DNA from: a virus
Reading direction: 5' to 3' (one strand)
IMG/VR virus record: IMGVR_UViG_3300020192_000001
Coordinates: 3,117-67,116 of that record
DNA: 64,000 nucleotides
Positions within the stretch are counted from its first letter, which is position 1. Each line of letters begins with the position of its first letter. The notes under the pieces were generated by a model. It was not told the DNA's origin, did no database searches, and saw nothing but the letters and a program-made list of their open reading frames with translations. Positions 1 to 40,848 of the stretch are shown here, in pieces. The translations under genes were made by a program, and so were the position numbers.

Positions 1-36
1 CAGCTTGTAGGGGTTAGGTCCATCGGTCTGTTCGAT
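1..36 (-). repeat. attC-like site (partial)
   Basis: Ends ...ggtccatcggtctGTTCGAT, like the end of site 1260-1394; GTTCGAT pairs with ATCGAAC at 396. Confidence 0.75.
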
Positions 37-423
37 TTATATCTTGTCCAAGGTGCGCTAGACAGCATGGGCGTGGCTCTCGCTGACCATCATCACGAAT
101 GGAGTGAAGGCGAGCGGGAAATCTACGATCAAGCAACTGAAATAATTAGGGCTTCGGCTGGCGGTTGTATGGAGACTGATTCGTTGGGCTCAAAGAAACA
201 TTCTTCTCTGATGCCTTTGATTGAATTGATCCTTCCGTGCGGCCTAATTTCAGGCCGATTACTCGCGTTGGGGTATTCTCCTTGGCGAGTTGCTTTAGTT
301 CACGGACATCTTGCGGTGTCCACTGCTTTCCGGTGTTGCGTGTGCTTTTGCTCATGTTTTGTTGTGGGTGAATGGCGCGATAGGCTTATTTCATTATCGA
401 ACGACAAGGTGAGATGCCGATGA
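1..423 (+). CDS. Antisense read-through ORF across cassette 1 (5' partial)
   Basis: Frame open from base 1 to TGA 421-423; reads AAC 400-402 as Asn; ATGA overlap with next gene. Confidence 0.4.
146..355 (-). CDS. Small bacterial-type hypothetical protein (canonical cassette gene)
   Basis: 69 aa, RNTGKQWT...[15 protein letters not shown] resembles a conserved small bacterial protein; lies wholly within one cassette. Confidence 0.65.
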   Translation of the reverse strand: MSKSTRNTGKQWTPQDVRELKQLAKENTPTRVIGLKLGRTEGSIQSKASEKNVSLSPTNQSPYNRQPKP

Positions 424-498
424 CCGCCGAAATTCCAGCTTTGATTCCACAACCCGGCCACCCGGCGGGCAGCGGTTATCTCGACCGCCTGGTTGGGC
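396..498 (-). repeat. attC-like site
   Basis: ATCGAAC gacaaggtgagatgccg...cggttatctcgaccgcctg GTTGGGC imperfect inverted repeat. Confidence 0.85.
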
Positions 499-950
499 CG
501 AAACGCTACTGGGCCACGCCGCCCGAAATGATGGAGGTTCTCAATGCGGAGTTCGAGTTCGACTACGATCCTTGTCCGCACCCAAGGCCGGAAGGCTTCG
601 ATGGCCTGCAAGTCCCGTGGGGGAAACGTAACTGGGTAAATCCGCCCTTCACTGGCGAACCGCGAGTGCCCGGAAAGCGAAAGCTCGGGCCGGTGGCGTG
701 GCTGAGAAAGGCCGTAGCTGAACGGGAAATTGGAAACATGACCGTGCTGATACTGCCGATCTACAACGTGCGGGCGATCTCAATGGCGGAGGACTTTGGG
801 GCGGAAATCCGATACTTCGGGAAGCCTCAATGGCTGGCACTTGAAGACGGGCAACCGAACCCGGCGCGGAAATCAGATTGGCATCCGTGCGTGCTCATTA
901 TTCTTCTGCCCAACACGGAGCTGACCAGCCCGAAGGGAGATCAATCGTGA
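420..950 (+). CDS. Phage DNA N6-adenine methyltransferase (Dam-like)
   Basis: WATP, FDYDPCP, DGL..PW and VNPPF motifs; starts in one attC and ends in the next (alternative start 414). Confidence 0.85.
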
Positions 951-1022
951 GCAACGAGATTGCACCCTCGCCGACGCCGCAAGACGCAAACCCGAAGGGT
1001 TTGGTCGAGCGGCTGGTTGGAA
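908..1022 (-). repeat. attC-like site
   Basis: GCCCAAC acggagctgacca...tggtcgagcggctg GTTGGAA. Confidence 0.85.
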
Positions 1023-1068
1023 TCCTGATGGGCACCAAACAATTCCCGCCGATAGGCGGCACTAAAAT

Positions 1069-1329
1069 ATGAACATCGACGGACTCAGACAAGATATGGA
1101 GATCGCATTCCAACGGGTCACTCAATACACCCTAATCGAAGACGAGGTTGAGGCCGTCTACCTCGGACTGACTCGACTGCGAGAAATTGAAAAAGCGGCG
1201 GAGATCGGAGACATCGCAGAAGTTCAGGTTTTGCTCGGAATCGAAAAAGCCCAACTGGATTCCAACGTCCGCGATCACTTGCCCCGGAAAGCTGGCACGC
1301 CCGATGCCGATACAAAGGAGAACGTATGA
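1069..1329 (+). CDS. Hypothetical cassette protein
   Basis: ATGA-coupled ORF ending in the attC loop. Confidence 0.6.
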   Translation: MNIDGLRQDMEIAFQRVTQYTLIEDEVEAVYLGLTRLREIEKAAEIGDIAEVQVLLGIEKAQLDSNVRDHLPRKAGTPDADTKENV

Positions 1330-1394
1330 GCATCCAGAAACCTTCGCATCGAAAGTGCCAGCTTGGAGGGGTTAAGTGGATCGCTCTGTTCGCT
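1260..1394 (-). repeat. attC-like site (AACGTCCGCGATCAC family)
   Basis: TTCCAAC gtccgcgatcactt...aagtggatcgctct GTTCGCT. Confidence 0.88.
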
Positions 1395-1595
1395 TTATTC
1401 GTTTGTGTGAATTGTGCAACCACTGCTCCCGGCCATCATGTTGATCGTGGCAACGCAGTCAGGCTTGTTAATGTAGCTTTCGCTGGATACCGCAATTTTC
1501 TTGTGGTTGGCAGCATGAAATGTCCATCGCCACTGGCGAGAGACATCGCGGTAAACAACGTAATACCCAATCGGGTTTGGAGTGCTCATATATGA
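1326..1595 (+). CDS. Antisense read-through ORF over the DUF1508-like gene
   Basis: Starts in the attC loop after AAGGAG; ATGA overlaps at both ends. Confidence 0.4.
   Translation: MSIQKPSHRKCQLGGVKWIALFALFVCVNCATTAPGHHVDRGNAVRLVNVAFAGYRNFLVVGSMKCPSPLARDIAVNNVIPNRVWSAHI
1395..1589 (-). CDS. YegP/DUF1508-family protein (canonical cassette gene)
   Basis: YRD..RQWRWTF.AANHKKIA.SSESY..K.DC...I pattern; stop abuts the attC R'' box. Confidence 0.8.
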   Translation of the reverse strand: MSTPNPIGYYVVYRDVSRQWRWTFHAANHKKIAVSSESYINKPDCVATINMMAGSSGCTIHTNE

Positions 1596-1828
1596 ATACT
1601 GTTAGTGTGTTAGAAAAATCACCGGCCTATCAAAGGGCGGATAACTCAGCGCGGATTTTGACCGTGATCGAAACAACGAACATGACACGCGGAAACGGCA
1701 CTGAAGAAGACCCTGTGCGAGTCGTAACGCAATATTGGACTCTCGATGGAACGCTTCTTGTCGAAGTGGACTCATATTCTTCTGCGAACGACAAAGTCAC
1801 CAACAAGGGGAGCGAAAATGAGCACTGA
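1592..1828 (+). CDS. Hypothetical phage protein
   Basis: VIETT..RGNGTEEDPVRVVTQYWTLDG pattern; coupled start. Confidence 0.65.
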   Translation: MNTVSVLEKSPAYQRADNSARILTVIETTNMTRGNGTEEDPVRVVTQYWTLDGTLLVEVDSYSSANDKVTNKGSENEH

Positions 1829-1882
1829 ATCCACGCCAGAAGTCCCGCGCTCCCCGCAGTTTGGTGGACTGCTTGGTTCGGC
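1783..1882 (-). repeat. attC-like site
   Basis: TGCGAAC gacaaagtcaccaac...tttggtggactgcttg GTTCGGC. Confidence 0.85.
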
Positions 1883-2177
1883 ATTTATCGTCGTGTTCGA
1901 TGATGAGCAAGGTTTGTGCGTGCCGCTTGGGTGGGACGGCGAATGCAGGGGGGCCATCTGCTGCAACCAAGGAAAAGTAGCCTTGTTCCCTGACCGGAAC
2001 TCTGCCCGTCGCGCAATCAACATATCGGCAAAGTTTGCCGCGCTCCGAAAATCGCAAGGCATTCCAGAAAACACCGACTTCTCGCCGGAGTGCCGAAAAT
2101 CAATCCGTGTCATGGAGTGTATGCCGAACGCCCAAGATGAGGGACAGCCGGAAAAAGGATGCCGCCATGCAAACTGA
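1818..2177 (+). CDS. Hypothetical cassette protein
   Basis: Start in attC loop after AAGGGGAG; ends in next attC. Confidence 0.6.
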   Translation: MSTESTPEVPRSPQFGGLLGSAFIVVFDDEQGLCVPLGWDGECRGAICCNQGKVALFPDRNSARRAINISAKFAALRKSQGIPENTDFSPECRKSIRVMECMPNAQDEGQPEKGCRHAN

Positions 2178-2215
2178 GCGCGTTCCGGCTGTTCCTCTCC
2201 ATCGCCTTGTTCGCG
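2123..2215 (-). repeat. attC-like site
   Basis: GCCGAAC gcccaagatgagggacagccggaa...ttccggctgttcctctccatcgcctt GTTCGCG. Confidence 0.85.
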
Positions 2216-2448
2216 GAATTTTTAAGGAGGTGCTTATGCAAACATGGCGGAGAAAGCCCGCCACCATGAGAGGTCCGATCCCTCTTGTGCCTCTCCAATC
2301 GCCACTAAGGCTCGGTGCCCGCCGGTGCACAAATGCAAGTCCTGCCTCGCGAGCAGGGCATCCGGCAATCTTTTCAGCGAACGCCACAGTGGAGCCATGC
2401 GGCCGGGATCCGCGCTCCGAAATCTCGCCAATCACCAAATCAAAATGA
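2167..2448 (+). CDS. Hypothetical short cassette ORF
   Basis: Starts in attC loop; AAC 2380 in frame; ATGA overlap at 2445. Confidence 0.35.
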   Translation: MQTERVPAVPLHRLVRGIFKEVLMQTWRRKPATMRGPIPLVPLQSPLRLGARRCTNASPASRAGHPAIFSANATVEPCGRDPRSEISPITKSK

Positions 2449-2497
2449 CAACTCCAATAAAAAGCGGGGCCGCATTGGCTCCCACGGCTGGTTCTGC
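2376..2497 (-). repeat. attC-like site
   Basis: AGCGAAC gccacagtggagccatgcggcc...ggccgcattggctcccacggctg GTTCTGC. Confidence 0.85.
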
Positions 2498-2861: not shown

Positions 2862-2934
2862 TCAAATAGCTATGAAAAATAACCTCATCAAAACCGCCGC
2901 AATAGTGGCGATTTACTGCACTGCTTGGTTCGGA
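2813..2934 (-). repeat. attC-like site
   Basis: GCAGAAC gtcccaagtcagaaatcgccact...agtggcgatttactgcactgcttg GTTCGGA. Confidence 0.85.
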
Positions 2935-3165
2935 TTTTCTCACGCGCAAGAGTCCTCTATCGCAAGCGATCTTATTGTGACCAGCGGCCACATTACCCCC
3001 GTGGATAAAATCACATTCTCGCCGGGTATCACCATAAACACCGTGACCGGCGAGGTGACGATCCCGAAAAACGTCGCAATCCCCGAAGCCGCACGCGCAT
3101 TCTGGGTCGCTGTGGCAAAGGCTTTCCCGGAAGTAAAAAAAGCCATGATGGAGGACGGGAAATGA
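2872..3165 (+). CDS. Putative exported protein; signal peptide encoded by the attC arm
   Basis: MKNNLIKTAAIVAIYCTAWFGFSHA-Q signal-peptide-like N-terminus. Confidence 0.6.
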   Translation: MKNNLIKTAAIVAIYCTAWFGFSHAQESSIASDLIVTSGHITPVDKITFSPGITINTVTGEVTIPKNVAIPEAARAFWVAVAKAFPEVKKAMMEDGK

Positions 3166-3169
3166 GTAA

Positions 3170-3609: not shown

Positions 3610-3646
3610 CCGCGTTCCCGATGTTGGCTCGATGGGCTTGTTCGCG
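3558..3646 (-). repeat. attC-like site
   Basis: GCAGAAC gctgcccatgagcca...tggctcgatgggctt GTTCGCG. Confidence 0.85.
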
Positions 3647-4393: not shown

Positions 4394-4403
4394 TGGGAAG
4401 GCC

Positions 4404-5029: not shown

Positions 5030-5032
5030 TCG

Positions 5033-5165: not shown

Positions 5166-5361
5166 TGATTTGGCGATACTCAGGAAAGAATGCGAACATC
5201 GCATCGAAGTGTGCCGGGTAAATATCCTAGAAGCTGGGTTTGCTGTTCGGCACATGAGCCCGCGCCGCGCCGCCGAGCAACTGGATCAATGTGAGCATTA
5301 CGCAAGGTTAGCGGCTTACGACGCTCGCGAACTGACACGTAGGCTTCTGCCGGACGCATGA
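5080..5361 (+). CDS. Hypothetical cassette protein
   Basis: Start in attC loop; ATGA overlap with the MTase. Confidence 0.55.
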   Translation: MNKITTPPKPETSTPASTGEGFGGSDCSADLAILRKECEHRIEVCRVNILEAGFAVRHMSPRRAAEQLDQCEHYARLAAYDARELTRRLLPDA

Positions 5362-5449
5362 GTGCTGGCACCGACATGAGCGCGAAAGACGCCGCCTTCA
5401 CGCTGGACAGTGCCGCTCATGGCGGTTGTCCAGCCACGACTTGTTATGC
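5349..5449 (-). repeat. attC-like site with mutated core (AAC>GAC)
   Basis: GCCGGAC...catgagcg...cgctcatg...GTTATGC; GCCGAAC expected from the GTTCGGC at 5159. Confidence 0.7.
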
Positions 5450-6221
5450 CTCTTCTGAGTTGCCGAAAACCTCCGAATCCATGCTTGCTCTGATGGGCAA
5501 ATACGCGCTTCCGCATGGCTACTGGTATTCGCCACGGGTGATGCTCTATCGTGGAGACTGCGAGGAAATCGCGCCTATGCTCAGTAAAGTGGTCGATGCT
5601 GTGATCTCTGATCCTCCTTATGGAATCGCGGTGAACACCCGCAACGCCACTCGCTCAAATACTCCACCACACTCAAGAACAGTCGTGGCATCCAAGAACT
5701 GGCAACCCGTGGAAGGTGACGATAAAGACTTCGATCCGGCGACGTGGTTAAAGTGGCAAAGGGTTGTCCTCTGGGGTGCGAATAACTACGCAAGCAGCCT
5801 GCCTGATTCACCGTCATGGCTCGCATGGAACAAGCGGACACCAGAAGGCTTCAAGAAGTCGCAAGTGGAACTCGCGTGGATGCGTGGCGCGGGGAAATGC
5901 TCCTATCACTTCGATCATCAATGGCACGGAGTATGCCGTGATTCTGAACAGGCCGAAGGAAGCCTCCATCCCACGCAAAAGCCGGTCGCGCTTATGGCAT
6001 GGTGCATGGAAAAGGCGAAAGTTCCCGATGGCGGACTCGTCCTTGATCCGTTCATGGGGAGCGGAAGCACGGGCATTGCAGCCATCCGCACTGGACGGCG
6101 ATTCATCGGCATCGAGAAAGATCCGATCCACTTCAAAACGGCGCTGGAACGCATCCAGCAAGAACTCGCCCAGGGGGATCTTTTTCTTGGGCATAACGCA
6201 AAGAGCACCTATGACGCCTGA
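5358..6221 (+). CDS. DNA N4/N6 methyltransferase (beta class)
   Basis: LYRGDC, SDPPY, HPTQKP and LDPFMGSGST motifs. Confidence 0.92.
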   Translation: MSAGTDMSAKDAAFTLDSAAHGGCPATTCYASSELPKTSESMLALMGKYALPHGYWYSPRVMLYRGDCEEIAPMLSKVVDAVISDPPYGIAVNTRNATRSNTPPHSRTVVASKNWQPVEGDDKDFDPATWLKWQRVVLWGANNYASSLPDSPSWLAWNKRTPEGFKKSQVELAWMRGAGKCSYHFDHQWHGVCRDSEQAEGSLHPTQKPVALMAWCMEKAKVPDGGLVLDPFMGSGSTGIAAIRTGRRFIGIEKDPIHFKTALERIQQELAQGDLFLGHNAKSTYDA

Positions 6222-6311
6222 CACCGCCACCCCGCTGCAAATGGAGGCCCATAACGTCGCCCCCGCTCCGACTCTCAACGGGGCGGCATTAGGTGACTCG
6301 CCTTGTTGGAC
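6191..6311 (-). repeat. attC-like site
   Basis: GCATAAC gcaaagagcacctatg...cattaggtgactcgcctt GTTGGAC. Confidence 0.85.
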
Positions 6312-6963
6312 ATCTTCTTGCGGGCGCGTGACGCTGTATCATGGTCGCTGGCAAGACCTGCTGCCGCTGCCTGTGGACGCTATAATCACAGATCAGCCTT
6401 ACGGCACTGGATGGATACGCGGAGGCGGGAAAAAGGAAGGTGAGTTCAAGCGCAGGACGGAGAAAGCAGAATGGGACATCTTTGATGTGTCGTGGATGGA
6501 ACGCGCTCCCGGCATCGTGGCGGCATTCTGCCCGACGCAAGGCGTATGGGAAATGTGCCTGCGGATGGAAACTCCCCACGTCCTGAAATACCTGAAAACG
6601 AATCCGGCACCATTCGGCGCGGATCGTGAGCCGATAGTTAGCAGCCGCCCGCTGAGTGGATCGTGGGAGAAGGAAGCCTACAACGGTGACAACCCGCTGC
6701 ATCCATGCCAGAAGCCGCTGCCGCTCATGGGCTGGCTCATCCACGAACTGACCACGGAAGGCCAAACGGTCTGTGATCCGTTCATGGGAAGCGCAAGCAC
6801 TGGAATCGCCTGCATCCGCGCAAACCGCCGCTTCGTGGGTATCGAACAAGACCAGACGCACTACGCCACGGCCCTCGCCCGAATCAAAACCGAACTCGGA
6901 CAGGGGGATTTATTCTTGTCCAACGTTGAGTCCAGCAACGGCGAAAAGGAGGCCCGGCCATGA
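6211..6963 (+). CDS. DNA N4/N6 methyltransferase (beta class, DQPY variant)
   Basis: TDQPY, HPCQKP and CDPFMGSAST motifs; start in attC loop. Confidence 0.88.
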   Translation: MTPDTATPLQMEAHNVAPAPTLNGAALGDSPCWTSSCGRVTLYHGRWQDLLPLPVDAIITDQPYGTGWIRGGGKKEGEFKRRTEKAEWDIFDVSWMERAPGIVAAFCPTQGVWEMCLRMETPHVLKYLKTNPAPFGADREPIVSSRPLSGSWEKEAYNGDNPLHPCQKPLPLMGWLIHELTTEGQTVCDPFMGSASTGIACIRANRRFVGIEQDQTHYATALARIKTELGQGDLFLSNVESSNGEKEARP

Positions 6964-7025: not shown

Positions 7026-7316
7026 ATGAAAACATACAAACCAGAAAGCAGCTTCCAAGCTACCAGCGACGCATCGATGGTCTATAGCCTCCGACATACC
7101 GGATGGCAAAAAGGCAAGCAAGTGTGGTCCAATGATGTAGCCATATCAATCACCGCTCACCACCTGACGGACGAGGAGCGGGCCGACATCGCCCTAACCA
7201 TTCAGGGCGCGATGAACGCAAAATATCTGCACAACGTCCGCGATCACCAGCAGCCGCTTGCTTCTGGCGCGGGGGATGCAGGCAACCATGCAAGCCAAGG
7301 GGAGGAGTCACGATGA
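7026..7316 (+). CDS. Hypothetical cassette protein
   Basis: ORF ends within the attC loop with ATGA overlap. Confidence 0.55.
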   Translation: MKTYKPESSFQATSDASMVYSLRHTGWQKGKQVWSNDVAISITAHHLTDEERADIALTIQGAMNAKYLHNVRDHQQPLASGAGDAGNHASQGEESR

Positions 7317-7393
7317 AACTCCCCAGCAAGAAACGCAGCCCCCGTGCCAGAAGTGCCGCAGGCACGGCTGTTTGGTGGATCGCTCTGTTGGCT
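7229..7393 (-). repeat. Long attC-like site (AACGTCCGCGATCAC family)
   Basis: GCACAAC...GTTGGCT, 165 bp; near copy of 38475 and 38975. Confidence 0.88.
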
Positions 7394-22013: not shown

Positions 22014-23174
22014 ATGATCTACGTTTTCCCTGTATCCACATCGGACAGTTCACTCATTGATCCGCTCCATGCGGCCATCAAGCACCTTGGCGGAATGCAG
22101 GGGCGCAAGTGTGTGGCCATCGGCGACCAATCGGCCCGCGATGCGGTGGATTATTTGGCGGATCGCCTGGAAAACCTCAACGCGAAGGTGGAGAAACACA
22201 TTTTCCCCTTCACGTGCGAAGATGGCTGGCCGCGCGCCTGCAATCGCTATTTCACGGTGGCCGCTGCCCTCATGGCCAAGCAAGACGAGCCTTTTTATTA
22301 TTTTGAACTGGACAACACCCCGATCAAAGCGGGTTGGCTCGATAAAATCGAAGGGGAATACATGGCCGGTCTCGCGCGGGGCAAGCCGTTCATGGGGTAT
22401 CTGGTGCCGCACCGCGTCAACCGCAATGGCGTATGGTCCGACGATGGCAATGTGATGAACGGCTCCGGCGTTTATCCCTCCCTCTATGGGCATGTGTCGC
22501 TCCTGATCCGCGAAGTGGCACGGCAAAGCGTTCCTTGGGACGTGTATATGCGATGGGAGATGGTGAACGATTGCAAGGATGCCAACGATTTTCTCTTATT
22601 TAACTGGCACTCAACCAATTACCGATGGAAGGATTGCCTTGATGAGGCAACGGGAGCCACCGCTCCCCGGCTGGTTTGCGATATTGATAAACGCCCCGGC
22701 GGCATCTTGCACAACGGGAAATCCGATCCGGTGGAGTCGCGGCATTTTATCGTGCATGGGTGCAAGGATGGCTCGCTCTCCCGCATGGTCGTGGCGGGGG
22801 AGATCGCCGCTCCACCGATTACCAGTTTTGAGGAAGTTTCCATTCCCGCCACCCCGGCGGCGGGTTGGGACTCCATCAAAGATGAATCATTGCAGGGTGG
22901 ACAAGCCTGGTTAAGTCGCGAGTCCCATAAACTCGTCATCGAGGGTTCAAATCCCTCCCCTGCAACCAATTCAATCGCGAATGGTGCGCAGGGAGATCCT
23001 GCGACTCGGGGAAGAAAACCCCGGCATGAAACAAACCGATTGATCCCCGCTTCGGCCAAGAAAAAGAAAAAGCGCAAGCTGAACCTCTCCGAGGCTGAAC
23101 GCGCCCGACGCTCCGAACACGCCCGCAAGATGACCGAGGCCCGGCAAAATAAGATCGTGAGGATGGCCGCATGA
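22014..23174 (+). CDS. Glycosyltransferase-like protein with basic C-terminal tail; contains an embedded tRNA
   Basis: YFELDNTP..GWLD, MNGSGVYP, PWD and VHGCKDGS GT-A-like motifs. Confidence 0.6.
   Translation: MIYVFPVSTSDSSLIDPLHAAIKHLGGMQGRKCVAIGDQSARDAVDYLADRLENLNAKVEKHIFPFTCEDGWPRACNRYFTVAAALMAKQDEPFYYFELDNTPIKAGWLDKIEGEYMAGLARGKPFMGYLVPHRVNRNGVWSDDGNVMNGSGVYPSLYGHVSLLIREVARQSVPWDVYMRWEMVNDCKDANDFLLFNWHSTNYRWKDCLDEATGATAPRLVCDIDKRPGGILHNGKSDPVESRHFIVHGCKDGSLSRMVVAGEIAAPPITSFEEVSIPATPAAGWDSIKDESLQGGQAWLSRESHKLVIEGSNPSPATNSIANGAQGDPATRGRKPRHETNRLIPASAKKKKKRKLNLSEAERARRSEHARKMTEARQNKIVRMAA
22891..22968 (+). tRNA. tRNA-Met(CAT)-like gene, possibly pseudo (C at position 33)
   Basis: Acceptor TGCAGGG/CCCTGCA+ACCA, D-loop GG, anticodon stem CGAGT/ACTCG with CAT at 22926-22928, T-arm GAGGG-TTCAAAT-CCCTC. 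Confidence 0.75.
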
Positions 23175-28803: not shown

Positions 28804-29109
28804 ATGTCGCTGTATCCAGAAGGAACGGCAGCATCAACAGGGGATAGTTTACTGCGAACTTTCAGAAAACTCCTCGAACGGGCAATTGAACTTTACGGAG
28901 ACAATATGACTTCCCCTTTTCCCGAAGGAGTAACCCCCAGCACCGGCGACAATCTTGAGCGCACTGCGATCAAGCTACTGAGTGTGCTTAATGGATCCAC
29001 CCTTACCGCAGCAGGCTTTGCCTCGCTTGATCTATCATTGCTCCCGACATCAGACCCCGGCGGCGGCAAACCTTGGCGCAATGGCGGTTTGATGCAAGTC
29101 GGCCCATAA
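28804..29109 (+). CDS. Hypothetical protein with internal duplication
   Basis: YPEGTAASTGDSLLRTFRKLL / FPEGVTPSTGDNLERTAIKLL; C-terminal LPTSDP. Confidence 0.6.
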   Translation: MSLYPEGTAASTGDSLLRTFRKLLERAIELYGDNMTSPFPEGVTPSTGDNLERTAIKLLSVLNGSTLTAAGFASLDLSLLPTSDPGGGKPWRNGGLMQVGP

Positions 29110-29117
29110 ACAATCTC

Positions 29118-30788
29118 ATGAAAAAACTACTCAGCATTTTCTGTCTTCTTCCGGCTTTCGCATTTGCGGCCAGCCCTACTCTTGGGCCTGGCGGTGCATG
29201 GGGCACCCCAACAATCACCAGCGGCACGCTGCAAGGCACCACGGTCAACACCGGCACAATCAGCGGCGGGGCGTTTGTCGGCGACGGCTCGGGGCTCACT
29301 AGCGTCGGGGTAGTCACTGCCGATGGCGGGGGGAAATTGGGAACCAGCGCAAGCGCAACCACTGGCGGAGCCGTGGGGTATAACGCAATCGCAACCGCTG
29401 GCGGGTCCGTGGGAAGCGACGCAAGCGCAACCACTGGCGGAGCCGTGGGGCAGAGCGCATCCGCAACCACTGGTGGAGCCGTGGGGCAGAGCGCATCCGC
29501 AACCACTGGATTTGCTGGCGGCGTAGGAGCCATCGCGGACGCTGGCGGCGTCAACTTTTCCAGCAACGGCATCAGCAGCACCTATTCCGGCAGCGGCATT
29601 GCCATCAACGCCATCGAACTCGCTAGCTCTAACGGCGCAATCCCGCCATCACGCACGGCGCAGCGGACGACATTTTCCAACACGACTGCGACAATCTCCG
29701 CAGGGACGGCTTATCTCGGCCAGACGGGCACGATGTCCGCGTCGAGGGTCGTCAACGTGCCGCTGGCTAACTCAGTGCCCGCAGGCTACCAGCTGGTCAT
29801 CGCGGACGAGAGCGGCACCGTGACCAACGCCAACACGGTGGTCCTGACCCGCGCAGGGTCCGATTTGCTTAACAACGCGACCACGGAGGCGATGGCGTCC
29901 GCCTACACCCACCGTCGGTTGATTTCCAACGGCACCAACGCATGGCTATTTGACGCGGGCGTTGCGCGGCTCGGCGCGGCAAGCAACACCTTTTCTGGCA
30001 ATCAGGTTGTCAACGGCAACGCCACATTCGGCGATGCGGCGGCGGATGAGTTTGTCGTAGCCGATGACGACCCGCGATTTTCCAACCTAACGGCGGCAAC
30101 TTTCGTCGCGGCTGCCGATGCCACGCTTGCCGTAAACGGGTTGGTAATGACTAACCACATTCTAAGGCGACTCAGTGAGTCAAGCCCCGTCGTGGCGGGG
30201 GAATTTTCCTACACATTTGCCGGATCAGGAGCCAGTTTTCTCAGTGCAAGAATTGTCGATCTGCGCACCGGGAACACAGCGAGTTCGCTCGCCGCCGCGA
30301 GAACTCCCCACACTGGCCAAAGCGCATACATGAACGGCGTTGCATCTAATACTAGCATGAATTGGGCCGTGCCTGTTGCGTTCAGCTTCCGCGTGCATTG
30401 CTTTGACTTATCAGCAGACTCTGTGCTGCGGTGCTATCTGGGGCGGACGATTAGTTCCACGACAGATGGAGATTCTAGCACTCGTGCTATCGGCATCCGC
30501 ATGATCGGTCGCCGCCTTTGGCTGGAGCGGCACGACGGCACAACCCTTGCCTCCACGGACACCGGGTATGATTTCCCTAACGTCACGGGAGCGACGATCG
30601 GGGTGGCAGTATTGTCTGACGGTGCTGGAAATGTGTCGCTTAACGTAAACGGTGCCCTCATTACATCGGTCACCGGAGGTCCAACCACCGCATCAAATGC
30701 CTCCGAAGCAGGAATCTGGATGGCGGCATCAAATCCCTCCACAGACGGATTATCCGTCATTATCGGAGGCATCGTCGTTACTTATTAA
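29118..30788 (+). CDS. Tail fibre/adhesin-like protein with signal peptide
   Basis: G/A/T/S-rich, 12-aa SASATTGGAVG repeats, N-terminal MKKLLSIFCLLPAFAFA. Confidence 0.65.
   Translation: MKKLLSIFCLLPAFAFAASPTLGPGGAWGTPTITSGTLQGTTVNTGTISGGAFVGDGSGLTSVGVVTADGGGKLGTSASATTGGAVGYNAIATAGGSVGSDASATTGGAVGQSASATTGGAVGQSASATTGFAGGVGAIADAGGVNFSSNGISSTYSGSGIAINAIELASSNGAIPPSRTAQRTTFSNTTATISAGTAYLGQTGTMSASRVVNVPLANSVPAGYQLVIADESGTVTNANTVVLTRAGSDLLNNATTEAMASAYTHRRLISNGTNAWLFDAGVARLGAASNTFSGNQVVNGNATFGDAAADEFVVADDDPRFSNLTAATFVAAADATLAVNGLVMTNHILRRLSESSPVVAGEFSYTFAGSGASFLSARIVDLRTGNTASSLAAARTPHTGQSAYMNGVASNTSMNWAVPVAFSFRVHCFDLSADSVLRCYLGRTISSTTDGDSSTRAIGIRMIGRRLWLERHDGTTLASTDTGYDFPNVTGATIGVAVLSDGAGNVSLNVNGALITSVTGGPTTASNASEAGIWMAASNPSTDGLSVIIGGIVVTY
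29346..29510 (+). repeat. 36-bp coding tandem repeat (~4.5 units)
   Basis: agcgca..cgcaaccactggcggagccgtgggg units. Confidence 0.8.
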
Positions 30789-35683: not shown

Positions 35684-36757
35684 ATGAATGAACAAACCAC
35701 TGAACTGATAATCCATCCCGCACGCCCGACGTCCTCTGGACAAATGACCGCATTTTCTTCTGAGAATGCCTTCGAAGCGGCGCAACGAATGGCAAAAGCC
35801 CTATGCTCTTCAAATCTGGTCCCGGAATCTTTTCGCGGCCCTAACAATATCGGCAGCGTCCTCATTGCGCTGGAAATCTCTCAGCGACTTGGGGCATCCC
35901 CGCTGATGATTATGCAAAACCTGAATGTCATCCACGGTCGCCCGTCTTGGTCGTCTCAGTTCATTATTGCTGCGCTCAATAGCTGCGGACGATTCAGTCC
36001 TCTGCGATATGAAATGACAGGAGAAGGAGACAACCGGACGTGCATTGCTTGGGTTGTTGACCTCGCCGCCGGAGAACGGCTTGACGGTCCCCCTGTCTCA
36101 ATCGCAATAGCCAAAAAAGAAGGCTGGTTCCAAAAGAGCGGATCCAAATGGCAAACCATGCCGGAACTGATGCTTCGCTATCGCGCGGCAGCATTCTTTG
36201 GACGCCTCTATGCTCCAGATATTTTGATGGGAATGCAGTCGGATGATGAAGTCTTGGATGTTGGCCCACCAAAACACCGCACAGCTATTGCGTCGGCTTC
36301 GATCCCAACTATCGAAGTGCAAGAAGTGCAGGCATTGCCTGCGCCACCGCTGACGGGTGGAGAAGGCATTCCAAGTGCGCAAACTGCACCCGAGGTTGAG
36401 ACCAAAGCAGCCCAATCCACTGGAGCCGTAGCCGTCAAACCCGCAGTTCCCGCCGAAAAGGCAGCCAAGGCCAAGGTGCTGGAGAAAAAGCCCGCCGCGA
36501 AAAAAGAGCCTGAGCCTGAGCCCGAAGCCCTCTCCGAAATCGCCGCCAAGGGGAAAAAGATGGTGGAGGACGCAGGGCACACCGTAGCGGACTTCATTCG
36601 CGCGGCCCAGGCCAACGACTGGCTTGCCAAGGAATTCGACCCCGACACCACGAGCATTGCCGCCTTCGGCGACGAAAACCTCGTAGAATACACCAGCGAT
36701 CAAAACTGGCAGACTGTCGTTGACGAAATGAAACTCATCGTGGACGCCGCCAAATGA
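35684..36757 (+). CDS. RecT-like single-strand annealing recombinase
   Basis: S.LVP..F, MQNL.VIHGRPSW and SKWQTMPELMLRYRA motifs. Confidence 0.75.
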   Translation: MNEQTTELIIHPARPTSSGQMTAFSSENAFEAAQRMAKALCSSNLVPESFRGPNNIGSVLIALEISQRLGASPLMIMQNLNVIHGRPSWSSQFIIAALNSCGRFSPLRYEMTGEGDNRTCIAWVVDLAAGERLDGPPVSIAIAKKEGWFQKSGSKWQTMPELMLRYRAAAFFGRLYAPDILMGMQSDDEVLDVGPPKHRTAIASASIPTIEVQEVQALPAPPLTGGEGIPSAQTAPEVETKAAQSTGAVAVKPAVPAEKAAKAKVLEKKPAAKKEPEPEPEALSEIAAKGKKMVEDAGHTVADFIRAAQANDWLAKEFDPDTTSIAAFGDENLVEYTSDQNWQTVVDEMKLIVDAAK

Positions 36758-37518
36758 GTGCCATCGTCGTAAAAAATATAGATAATGTCCTCCCCTCTTG
36801 TACGGCGGAGTACGAGCTACTCAAGGCACAAGCTTTGGTAGTCTGCCGCGCTGTGGTGGCCGTAACAGAGGCCGAGTCGCAGCAGATAGCCGTGTCCGCC
36901 GTGGGCAAGATTAAGGGATTGCTGAAAATGGTGGAAACCAGCCGAGTGGACGTAAAGGCCCCCGTGCTGAAACTCTGCAAGGACATTGACGCCTTCGCAA
37001 AAGCCCTCGTTGCCGAATTGGAGGAAGAGGCGGGGCGCATCGAGAAAACACTGATCCGGCCCTACGTGCAGGTTGAGCAGGAGAAGGCGGCAGCCCGCCA
37101 GCGACTGGCCGACGATCTGGCGCGCAAGCAGCGCGAGAAAGCCGAGGCACAGGCCAGAGAGGCAGAGGCCGAACGCCAACGGTTCTTGCGGGAGGCGCAG
37201 GCCGCCACCAGCGCAGCCGAGGCGCAAGCCCTCGCCGCCGCCGCCCAAGCCAAGGCGGAGGAAGCCGCCGCCGCAACCGAGCGGATGGAAAACACTCAGG
37301 CCCGCGTCGTAGCGGCACCAGCCAAAGCCGCTGGCATGACCGTGCGCAAGGTCTGGCGGTTTGAGGTGACGGACATCGCAGCCCTTTATAAGGCGCGTCC
37401 ATCGCTCTGTGTGCTCCAAGAAAGCGCAAGCGCAATCAACGCCGAGATGCGGGGAGGGATGCGCCAATGCGCAGGACTCCGCATCTGGGAAGAAGTGGGA
37501 ACCACCGTGCGGGCGTGA
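36754..37518 (+). CDS. Coiled-coil phage protein (Gam/Gp157-like)
   Basis: KAPVL...K.ID, Ala-rich coil, RKVWRFEV.D...GLRIWEE. Confidence 0.55.
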   Translation: MSAIVVKNIDNVLPSCTAEYELLKAQALVVCRAVVAVTEAESQQIAVSAVGKIKGLLKMVETSRVDVKAPVLKLCKDIDAFAKALVAELEEEAGRIEKTLIRPYVQVEQEKAAARQRLADDLARKQREKAEAQAREAEAERQRFLREAQAATSAAEAQALAAAAQAKAEEAAAATERMENTQARVVAAPAKAAGMTVRKVWRFEVTDIAALYKARPSLCVLQESASAINAEMRGGMRQCAGLRIWEEVGTTVRA

Positions 37519-37558
37519 TGCCCCGATTTGTTAGCGACCAACACCGAAAGAACCAAAA

Positions 37559-37897
37559 ATGCAAACAGTAACAGTATATGGTGCAAGTGATGACCTCATT
37601 GAAATCGAGGGGGACATCCGAGACGAAATCAGCGCAGACAGTGACATGCCGTGCAAGCTGGCATTCTCGGATGGGACTGTCCTTAACGTGGTATATGACG
37701 AAGATGGATGCTGGAGAGTAACCCGCATCGCCGCAGGAACGGCCGCAATGCAGAAGATCGAAGCCGAAGGGTCGGACACTGACAACTATTCCGACCGAGT
37801 TACTCTCAATGGTGACATCAAATGGGTGGTGGCAGGGTACTGTATTACAAAAGTTGAACCAACCAGCGGCGTGGCTGAGATGGAGGCACGACCATGA
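37559..37897 (+). CDS. Conserved-looking phage hypothetical protein
   Basis: VTVYGASDDLIEIEGDI motif. Confidence 0.7.
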   Translation: MQTVTVYGASDDLIEIEGDIRDEISADSDMPCKLAFSDGTVLNVVYDEDGCWRVTRIAAGTAAMQKIEAEGSDTDNYSDRVTLNGDIKWVVAGYCITKVEPTSGVAEMEARP

Positions 37898-38562
37898 GTG
37901 CGCCGTTGCCGACGCATGGTGCGGTGGTCGAAATCAATATGACGGACGGCTACATCAACACGCTCTTCAAGGCTACTAATTTTGGTCCTCAGGGAGAAAC
38001 TCCGAGAGGCCGACGCGGACTGATGGTCGAGTGTGTCCTGAAATATGCCAGCCTCTACGTAGACGGCAGCACGATAACCAATATATGCAAAAAGGCCGGA
38101 CTCATTGGCGATTGCGGCGCAACGCACGCTGGGATTCGCTGGGCATTCAAGCAAATGTACCGGAGCGGTGGAACAACGATCATAGAGCGACTCCATCCGC
38201 CGAACGTCGAGTCTTGGCAGCCCCACCCGAACCACAATAAATCTATGTCACAAAATCAAACGCCTGAATCACCGCAACCCGTAGCCGAAGCTGAGAGCTT
38301 GGTGGGGGTTGCCAACGACGTCTTGTTAGCACTAAGGATTCGCTCTTTGATAGCGGACAAGGAAATGGTCACGGCGACGGCTAATTTGGACCTTGCAAGA
38401 GGCGGGGAATGGCGACTCGACTATTCTGCATGGCAGGGGCAACTCAACGTGGAGATCGACGCTTTGTTTTCTGAGGCTAACGTCCGCGATCACCGGCAGC
38501 CGCTTGCTTCTGGCGCGGGGGATGCGGGCACCCATGCAATCCAGGGGGAGGAGTCACGATGA
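37894..38562 (+). CDS. Chimeric ORF reading through an attC (internal ATG 38245)
   Basis: No stop in attC 38199-38331, so two cassette ORFs are fused. Confidence 0.5.
   Translation: MSAPLPTHGAVVEINMTDGYINTLFKATNFGPQGETPRGRRGLMVECVLKYASLYVDGSTITNICKKAGLIGDCGATHAGIRWAFKQMYRSGGTTIIERLHPPNVESWQPHPNHNKSMSQNQTPESPQPVAEAESLVGVANDVLLALRIRSLIADKEMVTATANLDLARGGEWRLDYSAWQGQLNVEIDALFSEANVRDHRQPLASGAGDAGTHAIQGEESR
38199..38331 (-). repeat. attC-like site
   Basis: GCCGAAC gtcgagtcttggcagccccacc...ggtgggggttgccaacgacgtctt GTTAGCA. Confidence 0.85.
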
Positions 38563-38638
38563 ATCTCCCCGACAAGAAAGCATCCCCCGTGCCAGAAGTG
38601 CCGAAGGCACGGCTGTTTGGTGCATCGCTTTGTTCGCG
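38475..38638 (-). repeat. Long attC-like site (AACGTCCGCGATCAC family)
   Basis: GGCTAAC...GTTCGCG; near-identical to 38975-39138. Confidence 0.9.
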
Positions 38639-39062
38639 TTTTTCCTCTTCATTCACACGCAATCTCCCGCTTGCCATCTGGATAATATACCCATCGTTCC
38701 CAATCCGTTGGTTTCGGCCCTCGCTGCACAATGTAGAGAAACTTACCGTTGATCGCCTTTGCGATCTCTGCATTGACGGTGTGTATCCATTCGATATAGC
38801 GAGGAATAATCTCTCTCGCTGGCTTCCCCGCCCATTCTATCTTTTGAGCCTGAACCTGATTCCGACTCTTAAGATACTGAGAAACATCGAAATGAATTGT
38901 GACGGAAACGCCGCCACCAAAGTCGCATTGAAATGTGAGAATATCGTTCATGTTGAAAGCGCGACTATATTTTCAGCGAACGTCCGCGATCACCAGCAGC
39001 CGCCTGCTTCTGGCGCGGGGGATGCAGGCACCCATGCAATCCAGGGGGAGGAGTCACGATGA
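38559..39062 (+). CDS. Antisense read-through ORF
   Basis: attC loop to attC loop, stop-free opposite 38649-38951. Confidence 0.4.
   Translation: MNLPDKKASPVPEVPKARLFGASLCSRFSSSFTRNLPLAIWIIYPSFPIRWFRPSLHNVEKLTVDRLCDLCIDGVYPFDIARNNLSRWLPRPFYLLSLNLIPTLKILRNIEMNCDGNAATKVALKCENIVHVESATIFSANVRDHQQPPASGAGDAGTHAIQGEESR
38649..38951 (-). CDS. Hypothetical protein (canonical cassette gene)
   Basis: 100 aa filling the cassette; stop just before attC. Confidence 0.65.
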   Translation of the reverse strand: MNDILTFQCDFGGGVSVTIHFDVSQYLKSRNQVQAQKIEWAGKPAREIIPRYIEWIHTVNAEIAKAINGKFLYIVQRGPKPTDWERWVYYPDGKREIACE

Positions 39063-39138
39063 ATCTCCCCGACAAGAAAGCATCCCCCGTGCCAGAAGTG
39101 CCGAAGGCACGGCTGTTTGGTGGATCGCTCTGTTCGCA
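38975..39138 (-). repeat. Long attC-like site (AACGTCCGCGATCAC family)
   Basis: AGCGAAC...GTTCGCA. Confidence 0.9.
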
Positions 39139-39757
39139 TTTATTCTCGTTATTCTTCGATTGTTTTGATGTGGGCACCGTGAGGTCTCTTAGGAATAGCC
39201 GAGACAATATCGTGTATAGTGGGCTTCCCCCAGAGATGGTTAAGGAAGTGGACATGCGATCCGCCGATGAAATGGCCATCATCGCGACTGTCACGGGTAT
39301 CAAACGTAAGAAGGTGCCATATATCAGGTTTGTGAGCGCACACAAAGAAATGAAAAATGGCTCTTCCAGAATCCTTGGTAAGTTGATTGTAAAGCTGGCT
39401 AAGATCGTGCGGTGTTCCGATCTTCTCGCGAGCATTCACCCAAAGATGGTCAACGTTATTGTCCTCGAAGACGGGTGTGTGGAGATATCCGAGAGACCCG
39501 CACCCAATAATCATATGGGATATGTCCGAGTGTCGGAGTGTAAGTTGATGACAGAACTTCATCGCTTCGCGCTTCTTGGTTATGGCGAAAAGCTCCGTAA
39601 GATTCTCGGGAGGGCGATTTTTGTAAAACTCGAAAAATGCATCAATCACGGAAATTTGGATGACCTTATATTTTCAGCGAACGTCCCCGGTCAGGAATCC
39701 CCGCCTGCTTCTGGCGTGGGAGATGCAGGCAACCAATCACAAAAACCAACCAAATAA
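39059..39757 (+). CDS. Antisense read-through ORF
   Basis: 232 stop-free codons opposite 39149-39649. Confidence 0.4.
   Translation: MNLPDKKASPVPEVPKARLFGGSLCSHLFSLFFDCFDVGTVRSLRNSRDNIVYSGLPPEMVKEVDMRSADEMAIIATVTGIKRKKVPYIRFVSAHKEMKNGSSRILGKLIVKLAKIVRCSDLLASIHPKMVNVIVLEDGCVEISERPAPNNHMGYVRVSECKLMTELHRFALLGYGEKLRKILGRAIFVKLEKCINHGNLDDLIFSANVPGQESPPASGVGDAGNQSQKPTK
39149..39649 (-). CDS. Hypothetical protein (canonical cassette gene)
   Basis: 166 aa; WHLLTFD.RD...HF.GGSHVHFLNHLW; lower GC. Confidence 0.7.
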   Translation of the reverse strand: MIDAFFEFYKNRPPENLTELFAITKKREAMKFCHQLTLRHSDISHMIIGCGSLGYLHTPVFEDNNVDHLWVNAREKIGTPHDLSQLYNQLTKDSGRAIFHFFVCAHKPDIWHLLTFDTRDSRDDGHFIGGSHVHFLNHLWGKPTIHDIVSAIPKRPHGAHIKTIEE

Positions 39758-39843
39758 TAAAACATCATGAAAAACGAAAATAGCGCATCTCCCATGCCAG
39801 AAGTCCCGGAGGGACGGGGATTTGCTGGACCGGTCTGTTCGCG
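39676..39843 (-). repeat. Long attC-like site (related family)
   Basis: AGCGAAC gtccccggtcaggaatccccg...cggggatttgctggaccggtct GTTCGCG, with compensatory changes relative to 38975. Confidence 0.88.
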
Positions 39844-40102
39844 CCTCATTTTTTTACTTCCTGAAAGTGGTAGTGATACAATGGAGCACTCTGGCAATCG
39901 GCAAACTCTCTACAGTCAATTATCTCGTTGGTATCCTCTGCTTTCAGACTTATATGGCAGTTGGGAAAAATATCCAGAAGCACGGAAGGGGTGGGAAAAA
40001 AGACTGAATTTTCCCCTTGAAGCCGGAATTCTCCAATGGATTTCGGAAGGCCGTCCACGTAAAGAGTGGCCTCGCGAAGATGAACTAAGGGCTCGGCGAT
40101 GA
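39767..40102 (+). CDS. Antisense read-through ORF
   Basis: Starts in attC loop; ATGA relay at 40099. Confidence 0.35.
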   Translation: MKNENSASPMPEVPEGRGFAGPVCSRLIFLLPESGSDTMEHSGNRQTLYSQLSRWYPLLSDLYGSWEKYPEARKGWEKRLNFPLEAGILQWISEGRPRKEWPREDELRARR

Positions 40103-40136
40103 CTAAGTTGCACAATTCAGAATCGAATTCATTCAT
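39846..40136 (-). CDS. Hypothetical protein (canonical cassette gene)
   Basis: 96 aa filling the cassette; stop abuts attC. Confidence 0.65.
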   Translation of the reverse strand: MNEFDSELCNLVIAEPLVHLREATLYVDGLPKSIGEFRLQGENSVFFPTPSVLLDIFPNCHISLKAEDTNEIIDCREFADCQSAPLYHYHFQEVKK

Positions 40137-40848
40137 GGTTAATCAGGGGGTTATTATTTCTGCGAACGTCCGCGATCACCGGCACCTACCCGCTGGCGCG
40201 ACGGGTGCCGGGAGCGAAGCGACCAAGCACTCGGCGTGCCAGCGGGTAGGTGTTCGGTGGATCGCATTGTTGGCATTTTTATTTTATGTGCCGCTCAATC
40301 TCGCCCAGGGCAGCCAAAACAGCCTTGTGCTTAAATGTGACGTTCTCTCCCACCGATTCCAAAAGAACGGAGTCGAAATTGGTGTCGCTCATCACTCTGA
40401 AATCAAGGGAGCGGTAATCAACCCAAGCCTGAATAATCTCCTTCTGGCGCGACTTCGAGAACAAGGGGATACTGGTGAAGACGGCCTTCTTCAAATCATC
40501 GAAAGTAGCTTTGTAGGACGTTTCTCCGTCCTCGGAGGATTCCACCAAATCTCTTATCATTTCGATCTGGGAGCGGACTCCGTTGATGGAACGCCTACGG
40601 TCCAAATGACAGGCAAACCAGAACCCGAGCATGGACGAAGCGAGCCATCCAATCGGGATAATAATATCCTTGGCGGTGATAAAGCAGGCGAGGAGTGGTG
40701 GAAGGATCATACAATCTGGTATTCTTGGTATCCCGCAGTCTTCTTTGCGTTGTGCATCGCGTATCTAAAAATCACTGACGAACTCCGCTGGCAGTGGAAG
40801 TGGAATTGGGGGCCATGGTGGAGAAAGCGTTTTTCTTCTGCCAACTAA
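40099..40848 (+). CDS. Antisense read-through ORF across attC and last cassette
   Basis: Reads AAC 40165 and AAC 40843 in frame; stops 4 bp before ATG 40853. Confidence 0.4.
   Translation: MTKLHNSESNSFMVNQGVIISANVRDHRHLPAGATGAGSEATKHSACQRVGVRWIALLAFLFYVPLNLAQGSQNSLVLKCDVLSHRFQKNGVEIGVAHHSEIKGAVINPSLNNLLLARLREQGDTGEDGLLQIIESSFVGRFSVLGGFHQISYHFDLGADSVDGTPTVQMTGKPEPEHGRSEPSNRDNNILGGDKAGEEWWKDHTIWYSWYPAVFFALCIAYLKITDELRWQWKWNWGPWWRKRFSSAN
40161..40275 (-). repeat. attC-like site (AACGTCCGCGATCAC family)
   Basis: TGCGAAC gtccgcgatcaccggcacctacccgctggc...gccagcgggtaggtgttcggtggatcgcatt GTTGGCA. Confidence 0.9.
40279..40710 (-). CDS. Membrane-anchored hypothetical protein (canonical cassette gene)
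   Basis: N-terminal TM then helical domain; stop abuts attC. Confidence 0.65.
   Translation of the reverse strand: MILPPLLACFITAKDIIIPIGWLASSMLGFWFACHLDRRRSINGVRSQIEMIRDLVESSEDGETSYKATFDDLKKAVFTSIPLFSKSRQKEIIQAWVDYRSLDFRVMSDTNFDSVLLESVGENVTFKHKAVLAALGEIERHIK

Follow-up and report, generated by a model that had tools for sequence, protein, structure and literature searches.

Open Antisense Frames across Integron Cassettes of a Phage Genome and a Possible Translational Relay through attC Loops

We analyzed a 64,000-nucleotide stretch of viral DNA (hereafter, the window), which comprises bases 3117–67116 of IMG/VR virus record IMGVR_UViG_3300020192_000001, a phage genome of 67,116 bp that has 127-bp direct terminal repeats and is rated complete. 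The repeats of this phage are integron attC sites, of the type present in arrays of Verrucomicrobiota genomes that encode the integron integrase IntI, and next to or near them lie seven minus-strand cassette genes. Over these cassettes, the open frames of the + strand exceed chance by far, and they do so in a frame-specific manner. We favor, with some reserve, the explanation that the + frames form a translational relay over the antisense cassettes, one that would protect the phage genes located downstream; the ribosome's role and polarity as the selective cause are the parts of this explanation that we infer.

RESULTS

Open + frames cover the minus-strand cassette genes

The preliminary description of the window, made from its letters, placed a stop-free + open reading frame (ORF), or an ATGA-relayed pair of them, over each of the seven minus-strand genes. 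All 14 ORFs are present (the first overlay, 1–423, is open at the window's edge), six of the minus ORFs are fully covered by one stop-free + frame, and gene 6 is covered by way of a single + stop, within the ATGA at 40099–40102. The minus ORFs do end beside or near attC sites, at distances of 0–8 nt for five of them, 50 nt for 7446–7892 and 110 nt for 146–355. The lower G+C content (GC) that had been remarked upon is also found: it is 0.44–0.49 in the seven cassette bodies and about 0.56 in the genome, with a median of ~0.46 in bacterial cassettes.

Judged by homology, the minus ORFs are real genes in five of the seven cases (genes 1, 2, 3, 5 and 7). Gene 1 (146–355, minus) encodes a small helix-turn-helix-like protein of 69 aa, whose residues 8–56 match phrog_323 ('transcriptional regulator, D5-like'; E 7.9e-9) and which matches Pfam HTH_38 at E 0.088 only. 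Gene 2 (1395–1589, minus; 64 aa) had been called DUF1508-like, rightly so, as it matches PF07411 (E 9.5e-7; 29.1 bits against a Pfam gathering cut-off of 22) and phrog_1422 (E 8.7e-8). Gene 3 (7446–7892, minus) encodes a predicted membrane protein of 148 aa with five relatives at 34–44% identity (E 1.4e-25 to 6.5e-14), a small family with a conserved PHYKFVQFLTVLCAGMLGLS block. The 100-aa product of gene 4 (38649–38951, minus) has a predicted local distance difference test score of 0.73 in Atlas's own model, a moderate confidence that makes this model a lead only. Gene 5 (39149–39649, minus; 166 aa, GTG start) has two full-length relatives at 71% and 66% identity, and gene 7 (40279–40710, minus; 143 aa) has one at 70% identity, with a coding-type mismatch pattern on the minus frame. 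For gene 6 (39846–40136, minus; 96 aa), Atlas structure matches with template modeling (TM) scores of 0.60–0.66 offer a PilZ-like fold as a lead only. An Atlas feature search with two of the minus proteins gave no usable match. DNA homologous to gene 5 was not found in the viral contigs, nor was any with queries A1 and A4; query A2 found no homologous DNA in the metagenome contigs; and neither A1 nor A4 found a relative among 401 genomes from the phylum of the candidate host, a result that does not imply absence.

The overlays begin and end in the flanking attC sites. In the whole genome, overlay 1 (1–423, +) has its start codon within the loop of an attC, the ATG lying 32 bases upstream of the window; the ORF then covers gene 1 in antisense and terminates within attC 397–500, and its frame has 0 stops where 4.3 are expected. 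Overlay 2 (1326–1595, +) is followed by an overlapping + ORF (1520–1828) that stops in attC 1784–1884. Overlay 3 (7313–7894, +) lies in a frame that is not codon-aligned (null P 0.011), and overlay 4 (38559–39062, +) differs by one residue from protein library entry P0018. Overlay 5 (39059–39757, +) is open and has nine database relatives, with no constraint on its sequence. Overlay 6a (39767–40102, +) ends inside gene 6, and overlay 6b/7 (40099–40848, +) reads through attC 40162 and gene 7 with 0 stops where 6.25 are expected (P 0.0008), ending at the TAA at 40846–40848 that is a phage gene's original stop. The odd composition remarked upon for the + products was a judgment by eye; in all seven cases, both ends of the overlay product are translations of attC arms. 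Pfam matches were found for 0/7 overlay products and PHROG matches for 1/7 (overlay 1).

Public collections list overlay ORFs from this phage, or from near-identical contigs, as predicted proteins (P0011 and P0018), and the minus genes are filed likewise; therefore, both strands of the same DNA are represented as 'proteins'.

Openness exceeds chance and is frame-specific

We compared the antisense frames to a null model of synonymous-codon shuffles with the codon usage of 61 bacterial cassette genes from the same attC family. The probability that any antisense frame is open was 0.092, 0.218, 0.011, 0.223, 0.0035 and 0.0008 for the six open genes, which gives a joint null probability of 1.3e-10 if the genes are independent. 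Gene 6 has one antisense stop, compared with 4.85 expected. An open antisense frame is present in 6/7 genes here and in 4/61 bacterial cassette genes, all four of them at most 106 aa long (Fisher 1.3e-5). Counting cassette bodies instead, the bottom-strand frame is open in 15 of 25 phage bodies versus 2 of 74 bacterial ones, one pair of which is duplicated (Fisher 1.9e-9).

The avoidance of stops follows the frame that is open. Among Leu and Ser codons, TTA, CTA and TCA account for 0/63 in the four genes with codon-aligned overlays versus 18/66 in the other three. Dicodons that create stops in the non-aligned frame number 1 in those three genes versus 31 in the four codon-aligned ones. The remaining two + frames over the seven cassettes contain 1–13 stops. 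A general codon-usage bias was considered as the cause and rejected, the avoidance being frame-specific. Long minus ORFs also lie opposite real + genes in other parts of this 56% GC genome, where they are common and spurious; for this reason, the argument is based on the controls and the low-GC cassettes rather than on how long the ORFs are.

The only two open bodies of the control set lie on one contig (L120, contig C337 of genome G002; 137–382, 1324–1636 and 2078–2169), which also has one attC with AAAGGAGG...ATG in its loop. This contig may be phage-type DNA that was binned in a bacterial metagenome-assembled genome (MAG).

The repeats are attC sites of a Verrucomicrobiota integron type

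Repeat finding and a hairpin scan show long imperfect palindromes, every one of which starts with xxxAAC and ends with GTTxxx. The sites have the R''-L''...L'-R' box order of attC, AAC and GTT at their ends and a variable center, and their L boxes covary (GCGATCACC/GGTGGATCGC, CCGGTCAGG/GCTGGACCGG and CCGATGACC/GGTCCATCGG). The + strand folds carry single-base bulges in the 3′ arm. A covariance model (R1), whose training set came almost entirely from Verrucomicrobiota arrays and comprised 27 bacterial sites plus one site each from a virus and from the window, scores 131 bits on the + strand versus 43 for the reverse of the same site, and finds 24 + strand attC sites in the window at E <= 0.04. 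On the minus strand of the window, R1 finds no independent attC, only weak mirror images of three + sites. The 3.1 kb that precede the window contain three further attC sites, and a member of the repeat family at 37855–37933 escaped R1; in total, the phage has about 28 sites spread over three regions. No match to PF00589 was found in the complete 67,116-bp genome, so the array is not a complete integron, which would have intI with attI and a Pc promoter beside it. With no integrase of its own, the phage therefore carries a cluster of attC sites lacking an integrase (CALIN).

A two-box motif derived from the phage repeats occurs at 35 loci of the genome collection, 27 of them from Verrucomicrobiota MAGs (including Terrimicrobiaceae and Chthoniobacterales), in arrays that reach 8 sites within 8 kb. 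In all four motif-bearing genomes examined, an integron integrase scores above the TIGR02249 cut-off, which bears out the integron origin proposed for the repeats. In the bacterial array L095, the motif and the cassette genes are on opposite strands, and stops abound in the antisense frames of these genes. Therefore, the phage + strand corresponds to the bottom, recombining strand of the attC sites ('bottom' as used in the attC literature), and each of the seven minus ORFs has the canonical orientation, as had been claimed.

Searching four candidate host genomes with the DNA of 38400–40900 matched attC sites only, and no cassette contents. The attC at 40162–40277 is 91–94% identical to attC sites of a Terrimicrobiaceae MAG (G001). 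In four metagenome runs, attC-type depth was 500–770 compared with ~5–15 for the phage; bacteria that carry this attC family therefore abound in the samples that also contain the phage. Among viral contigs, 67 single matches were found with a 15-mer from the attC, of which only L004 and L033 have related attC sites. The attC hairpins on the + transcript have folding energies of -60 to -94 kcal/mol as RNA, and they are followed on the + strand by T-rich tails (7.7 T per 15 bases versus 3.0 expected), as are bacterial attC sites. The 49-kb viral contig L004 (oriented 212–2742) carries a bacterial-type attC, a canonical gene of 306 aa whose antisense frames are closed, and a divergent ORF of 440 aa, possibly a recombinase gene; the region resembles an ordinary integron end in a record classed as viral.

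Phage genes meet in the attC loops in a fixed frame

At nearly every phage attC, the incoming + ORF ends and the outgoing one begins in the apical loop, often as ATGA. Stop and start overlap as ATGA at 38559, 39059 and 40099, and also at 1326, 7313 and 37894; the junctions at 39758–39766 and 40849–40852 have gaps of 9 nt and 4 nt. Strong Shine-Dalgarno (SD) motifs precede several of the starts: GGGGGAGGAG before 38559 and 39059, GGGGAGGAG before 7313 and AAAGGAG before 1326. Most phage cassettes carry + strand phage genes, with start codons in the attC loops. In the viral contigs L033, L124, L126 and L127, + genes, including methyltransferases, also start in attC loops.

The individual sites are all on the + strand. 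Bases 1–35 are the 3′ part of an attC that begins 97 bases before the window and, according to the hairpin scan and frame table, holds the ATG of overlay 1 in its loop. The attC at 397–500 (R1 E 0.0031) contains the stop of overlay 1 (421–423) and the ATG of a methyltransferase-like + gene at 414. In the attC at 1261–1396 (R1 E 8.4e-16), the start at 1326 forms its ATGA with the upstream stop at 1327–1329. Three sites are phage-type: 7230–7395 (R1 E 1e-13; junction 7313–7316), 38476–38640 (R1 E 2.8e-14; junction 38559–38562) and 38976–39140 (R1 E 6.7e-16; junction 39059–39062), the last belonging to repeat family D1 and being 94% identical to 38476–38654. The attC at 39677–39845 has arms that match bacterial attC sites and a tip replaced by 73–75 nt, which hold the stop at 39755–39757 and the ATG at 39767. 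The attC at 40162–40277 (R1 E 1.8e-30) is bacterial-type; it has no junction and is read through in frame. Bacterial attC sites with the same arms have short tips of 31–33 nt without an SD-ATG, and the phage loops look like replacements or insertions.

The frame of entry is nearly constant. Of the 23 attC sites reached by an incoming frame 40 or more codons long, 21 are entered in the same frame, with AAC read as a codon (binomial 1.1e-8). In this AAC entry frame, a stop lies inside 26/28 phage attC sites; in bacteria, the frame is open through 51/84. A metagenome scan with the junction motif returned 13 loci, of which one has an attC: the 1,787-bp contig L140, whose attC is 95% identical to the 7230 type and carries the same SD-ATGA loop between two different canonical genes. 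The right one of these genes has 1 antisense stop in 610 nt.

In + ORFs that start in attC loops (for example, 2872–3165), the 3′ arm encodes a hydrophobic N-terminus (MKNNLIKTAAIVAIYCTAWFGFSHAQ, ...WIALLALF...) that, judged by eye, resembles a signal peptide or membrane anchor.

In cassette 5, substitutions follow the minus frame

An exhaustive protein search with overlay 5 found nine relatives at 29–53% identity and two self-like entries. All nine start in or read through attC arms and end with '...ANV', the translated start of the next attC; by their sequences, they are attC-to-attC read-through ORFs that gene finders have called as genes. The open + frame of cassette 5 thus recurs in at least nine lineages with mutual identities of at most 50%, although no rate of openness follows from them, because the search returned only + ORFs already called as genes.

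Of the single-step mismatches to the three nearest + relatives, 86–87% are at + codon position 1, where the minus gene has its wobble base; the share is 61–66% for the minus relatives of gene 5. In simulations, the position-1 share among + relatives is 0.82 (0.75–0.91) if the minus frame codes and 0.58 (0.39–0.69) if the + frame codes, and among minus relatives it is 0.56 (0.44–0.68) and 0.78 (0.70–0.86), respectively. The observed + identity of 0.48–0.54 compares with a simulated 0.46 (0.38–0.54) at 70% minus identity. The mismatch pattern and the simulation therefore indicate that the minus frame of gene 5 is under selection at the protein level, while overlay 5 has only been kept open. Purifying selection on the overlay product, as expected of an overprinted gene, was not found for 39059–39757, the sole overlay of the seven examined in this way. 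No + relative is the exact antisense partner of P0001 or P0002 (codon compatibility reaches at most 88%), and therefore the two frames are not compared within the same lineage.

Four cassettes stand between a phage gene's last codon and its stop

Contigs of the four metagenome runs were placed on 37000–42000. In run X5, one 431-nt contig (depth 6.3) joins 38478 to 40843 through three shared letters, AAC. In this empty site, the phage gene that starts at 37894 ends with GCT AAC TAA, and 4 nt separate this stop from the next gene at 40853. In the window, four cassettes (38479–40842; 2,364 bp) stand between that AAC and that TAA, and the chain of frames 38559 > 39059 > 39767 > 40099 terminates at the empty site's TAA. 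The X5 contig is thus a single instance of cassette gain or loss at the AA|C (G|TT) point. The AAC at the insert's right edge (40843–40845, +; GTT on the other strand) is shared in the X5 joint with the AAC at 38479–38481.

The interrupted gene (37894–38562, +) matches phrog_18088, and its last 27 codons are the 5′ arm of attC 38476. The downstream gene (40853–41797, +) has no SD motif, starts 4 nt after the TAA and is followed by nuclease and helicase genes; it lies within a replication and recombination operon of RecT, exonuclease, nuclease and helicase genes. Scanning 37800–41200 for promoters and terminators gave matches at chance level, with a scan that is blind to stems as long as those of the attC sites.

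In run X2, contigs of a phage variant 97% identical to this one depart after 38200 and, past a stretch of unknown letters, rejoin at attC 38976 (38200–38977 and 37915–38979), which suggests a different cassette content in another sample. Other contig joints suggest that array content varies between samples, and we do not rely on them, given their short sides or unknown letters. Parts of the stretch had no contig cover in runs X6 and X7 and are not used as evidence. The runs listed as containing the cassette region include no RNA run.

DISCUSSION

A translational relay as the favored explanation

Across the seven cassettes, the + ORFs follow one another as links of a chain. Each link begins within its cassette's attC, at an SD motif and ATG carried by the enlarged loop; it continues through the 3′ arm and over the antisense strand of the gene into the following attC, which it enters in the fixed frame and in whose loop it stops, usually at an ATGA. 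Such a chain would keep ribosomes moving along the phage mRNA, and the moving ribosomes would melt the attC hairpins, which look like terminators on the + strand, where T-rich tracts follow them. A stop in an overlay frame would leave several hundred bases untranslated after the hairpin; the chain would deny such naked RNA to Rho, and the coupled gene downstream would be supplied with ribosomes. Any cassette that interrupts the chain would be lost, as would any stop that appears afterwards, and the overlay products would be by-products, not genes. The finding that attC 40162, which is of the bacterial type, stands beside a 563-bp open body favors a filter at capture for that cassette, and the deep recurrence within the cassette 5 family favors long maintenance. 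Rho-like genes are present in 4/4 candidate host genomes, one of them above the curated cut-off.

The preliminary description had proposed that the antisense strand is kept translatable to avoid polarity. Its factual half stands, as the openness of the + strand is beyond chance and specific to one frame; the purpose it named would be consistent with a relay that ends at the phage gene's original stop, 4 nt before the gene at 40853 that has no SD motif. A broader reading is that phages of integron-bearing hosts may run a cassette system of their own, in which the attC serves as the gene junction, a frame rule resembling exon phase lets any cassette slot in without breaking the ribosome chain, and antisense frames are selected purely for translatability. 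This we put forward tentatively, as conceivable and somewhat short of probable.

Several results weigh against the relay or narrow its scope. The 9-nt gap at 39758–39766 has no SD motif before the ATG at 39767, and the ATG at 40099 is preceded by a weak SD-like AAGGG only. Stops are present in 10 of the 25 phage cassette bodies (1–5 in the best frame), two overlapping ORFs are required to span the cassette at 1397–1783, and two or three for some phage cassettes; the left canonical gene of L140 is closed, with 3–5 stops in its two best frames. Genes 4 (38649–38951) and 6 (39846–40136) have no Pfam or PHROG match and no sequence relatives, and homology leaves them putative. The substitution analysis covers one of the seven overlays, with a simple simulation and with + and minus relatives from different lineages, and the empty-site variant comes from one contig of one run. 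The host is presumed from the attC type only. On the present evidence, Rho, terminator hairpins, coupling and mRNA decay are all compatible as causes of the selection. For cassette 1, the + ORF at 67–423 matches phrog_29001 (E 1.5e-9) over residues 2–39, at 70–183 of the window, and this part of overlay 1 is probably a real + gene. It overlaps gene 1 only at the gene's last 38 bases, the domain of gene 1 spanning ~188–334, and cassette 1 is better described as a + gene whose frame extends over a convergent minus gene.

We next weigh the relay against explanations in which the + or the minus products matter differently. If the + ORFs were functional or emerging proteins, overprinted or born de novo, their frames would be kept for their products; the length of the overlays, their strong SD-ATG starts, the hydrophobic segments that come from the attC 3′ arm, the phrog_29001 match and the nine diverged database clusters with an open + frame over cassette 5 could all be read in this manner. 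The preliminary description had predicted no matches for the + ORFs, a prediction that failed literally with the phrog_29001 match and the nine relatives of overlay 5, the latter being antisense images that run from attC to attC. However, the identity of overlay 5 to its relatives and its position-1 share (0.48–0.54 and 0.86–0.87) are those of a simulation without any + constraint beyond openness, none of the seven overlays matches Pfam, the single PHROG match barely reaches its minus gene, and the ends of the overlays are attC arms. We therefore regard selection for the + products as quite unlikely. The opposite possibility, in which the + ORFs are real conserved genes and the minus ORFs are spurious, has precedents within this phage, such as the 190-aa minus ORF at 6289–6861 opposite a methyltransferase; at ten such loci elsewhere in the phage, PHROG matches were found for 0/10 minus ORFs versus 5/10 + ORFs, and the + ORF of cassette 5 does have database relatives. 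In the cassettes, however, DUF1508 and phrog_323 match the minus frame, the minus product of gene 3 has its relatives at 34–44% identity, the mismatch patterns of genes 5 and 7 fit minus coding, and bacterial arrays place their genes on that strand. This possibility is largely refuted for five of the seven genes and is very improbable overall.

It is also unlikely, to a lesser degree, that the openness pre-exists in these cassette families everywhere, for a reason unrelated to the phage, and was taken up as is. The nine diverged relatives of cassette 5 show attC-to-attC open + frames as well, and the bacterial MAG contig L120 has two short open cassettes and an attC with an SD-ATG loop. In contrast, bacterial arrays of the same attC type have 2/74 open bodies and 4/61 open genes, none of the latter above 106 aa, and the SD-ATGA loops and the reuse of a phage stop codon are features of the phage context. 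Base composition could in principle open antisense frames in GC-rich DNA, where they are frequent; the genome is at ~56% GC and antisense ORFs of 100–200 aa do exist opposite its real genes. The cassettes, however, are at 0.44–0.49 GC, the other two + frames hold 1–13 stops, the joint null probability is 1.3e-10 and the avoidance is frame-specific, which leaves chance a negligible part and refutes it at the level of the tests made.

Relation to known systems

Phage CALINs, insertion at attG sites and sense-strand polar effects are already described. Qi et al. (2023; PMC9892861) report 17 CALINs, all with two or more attC sites, from phages both virulent and temperate. The present array resembles them in having attC sites and cassettes without intI, methyltransferase cassettes and GTT-type motifs at the array edges; unlike them, it has ~28 sites in three regions and a host attC family that is identified. 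Section 3.4 of that paper is silent on start codons in loops, a fixed frame through the attC sites and open antisense frames. Loot et al. (bioRxiv 10.1101/2022.09.11.507474) describe IntI-mediated insertion of cassettes at genomic attG sites with a short G-W-T core. The four-cassette insert is similar, as it lies outside att sites and has AAC (GTT when read on the opposite strand) at its edges as a shared core of 3 nt, and it differs in that its target is the last sense codon of a phage gene; the likeness is one of sequence.

Carvalho et al. (2024; PMC11511950) report that, in integron arrays, expression downstream of a cassette is governed by that cassette's translation, that it rises 2-fold when translation is extended as far as the attC, and, citing Jacquier et al. 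(2009), that attC hairpins impede translation. The relay would likewise make the translation of one cassette set expression further downstream. Those effects concern the sense strand and the Pc promoter in bacteria, whereas here the antisense strand of cassettes in a phage operon would be translated, with junctions in the attC loops.

Overprinted and other antisense overlapping genes share with these cassettes two long ORFs on opposite strands; unlike them, the second frame of cassette 5 shows only a lack of stops and no sequence constraint. The PeSLs of T4-type phages are mobile promoter and stem-loop cassettes, repeated at gene boundaries, where they allow the modular shuffling of small genes. 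While PeSLs are promoter elements unrelated to integrons, the elements here are attC sites of a host integron family. In the literature outside subscription journals and supplements, we found no description of attC-loop junctions, the frame rule or maintained antisense frames.

If true, the relay would show how recombination by host integrons within essential operons can be tolerated by a virulent-type phage, and would provide a direct link between integron structure and transcription-translation coupling. It would also mean that selection can act on a frame solely to keep stops out, making the frame neither coding nor non-coding in the usual sense. The findings bear on the travel of cassettes between bacteria by way of phages and, because several overlay ORFs are filed as proteins, on how 'overlapping genes' and 'hypothetical proteins' in virus databases are read. 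Translated ORFs without function could form a standing reservoir for new genes. That the overlays supply such raw material, as had been suggested, is conceivable but unsupported; the relatives of overlay 39059–39757 fit selection on the minus frame alone. The further suggestion that the sense genes are expressed in the lysogen found no support: a search of the complete genome yielded neither a tyrosine nor a serine recombinase.

OTHER FEATURES OF THE PHAGE GENOME

The recognizable genes of the window are on the + strand. Genes for a RecT-like protein and an exonuclease lie at 35684–37518 (+), and 41794–46921 (+) encodes a DUF2800/PD-(D/E)XK nuclease, two helicases and a DnaB-like helicase. An alternative genetic code was rejected, as the long phage genes are intact under table 11. 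Megablast of 9000–33000 against the phage collection returned no match. An Rfam search matched a tRNA only: a tRNA-Met (anticodon CAT) at 22891–22968, within a 386-codon + ORF (22014–23174) that, because of the tRNA inside it, is probably over-extended or not real in that part.

A 36-nt period repeat with five overlapping copies (29338–29553) lies in the + ORF 29073–30788. The region 54032–63355 is a single + ORF of 3,107 codons with internal repeats ~500 bp apart (58719/59217 and 59160/59718), and the GC skew of 54001–56000 is very high (0.37).

Several DNA methyltransferase genes are present on the + strand of the window. At least four + genes in cassettes or at array edges match phage DNA methyltransferase families (414–950, 5358–6221, 6211–6963 and 8720–9295), echoing the methyltransferase cassettes reported for phage CALINs (PMC9892861). 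Far from the main arrays, a PAPS-reductase-like gene (49499–50462, +; phrog_424, E 2e-41) lies exactly between two attC sites, with its GTG start inside the first and its stop inside the second.

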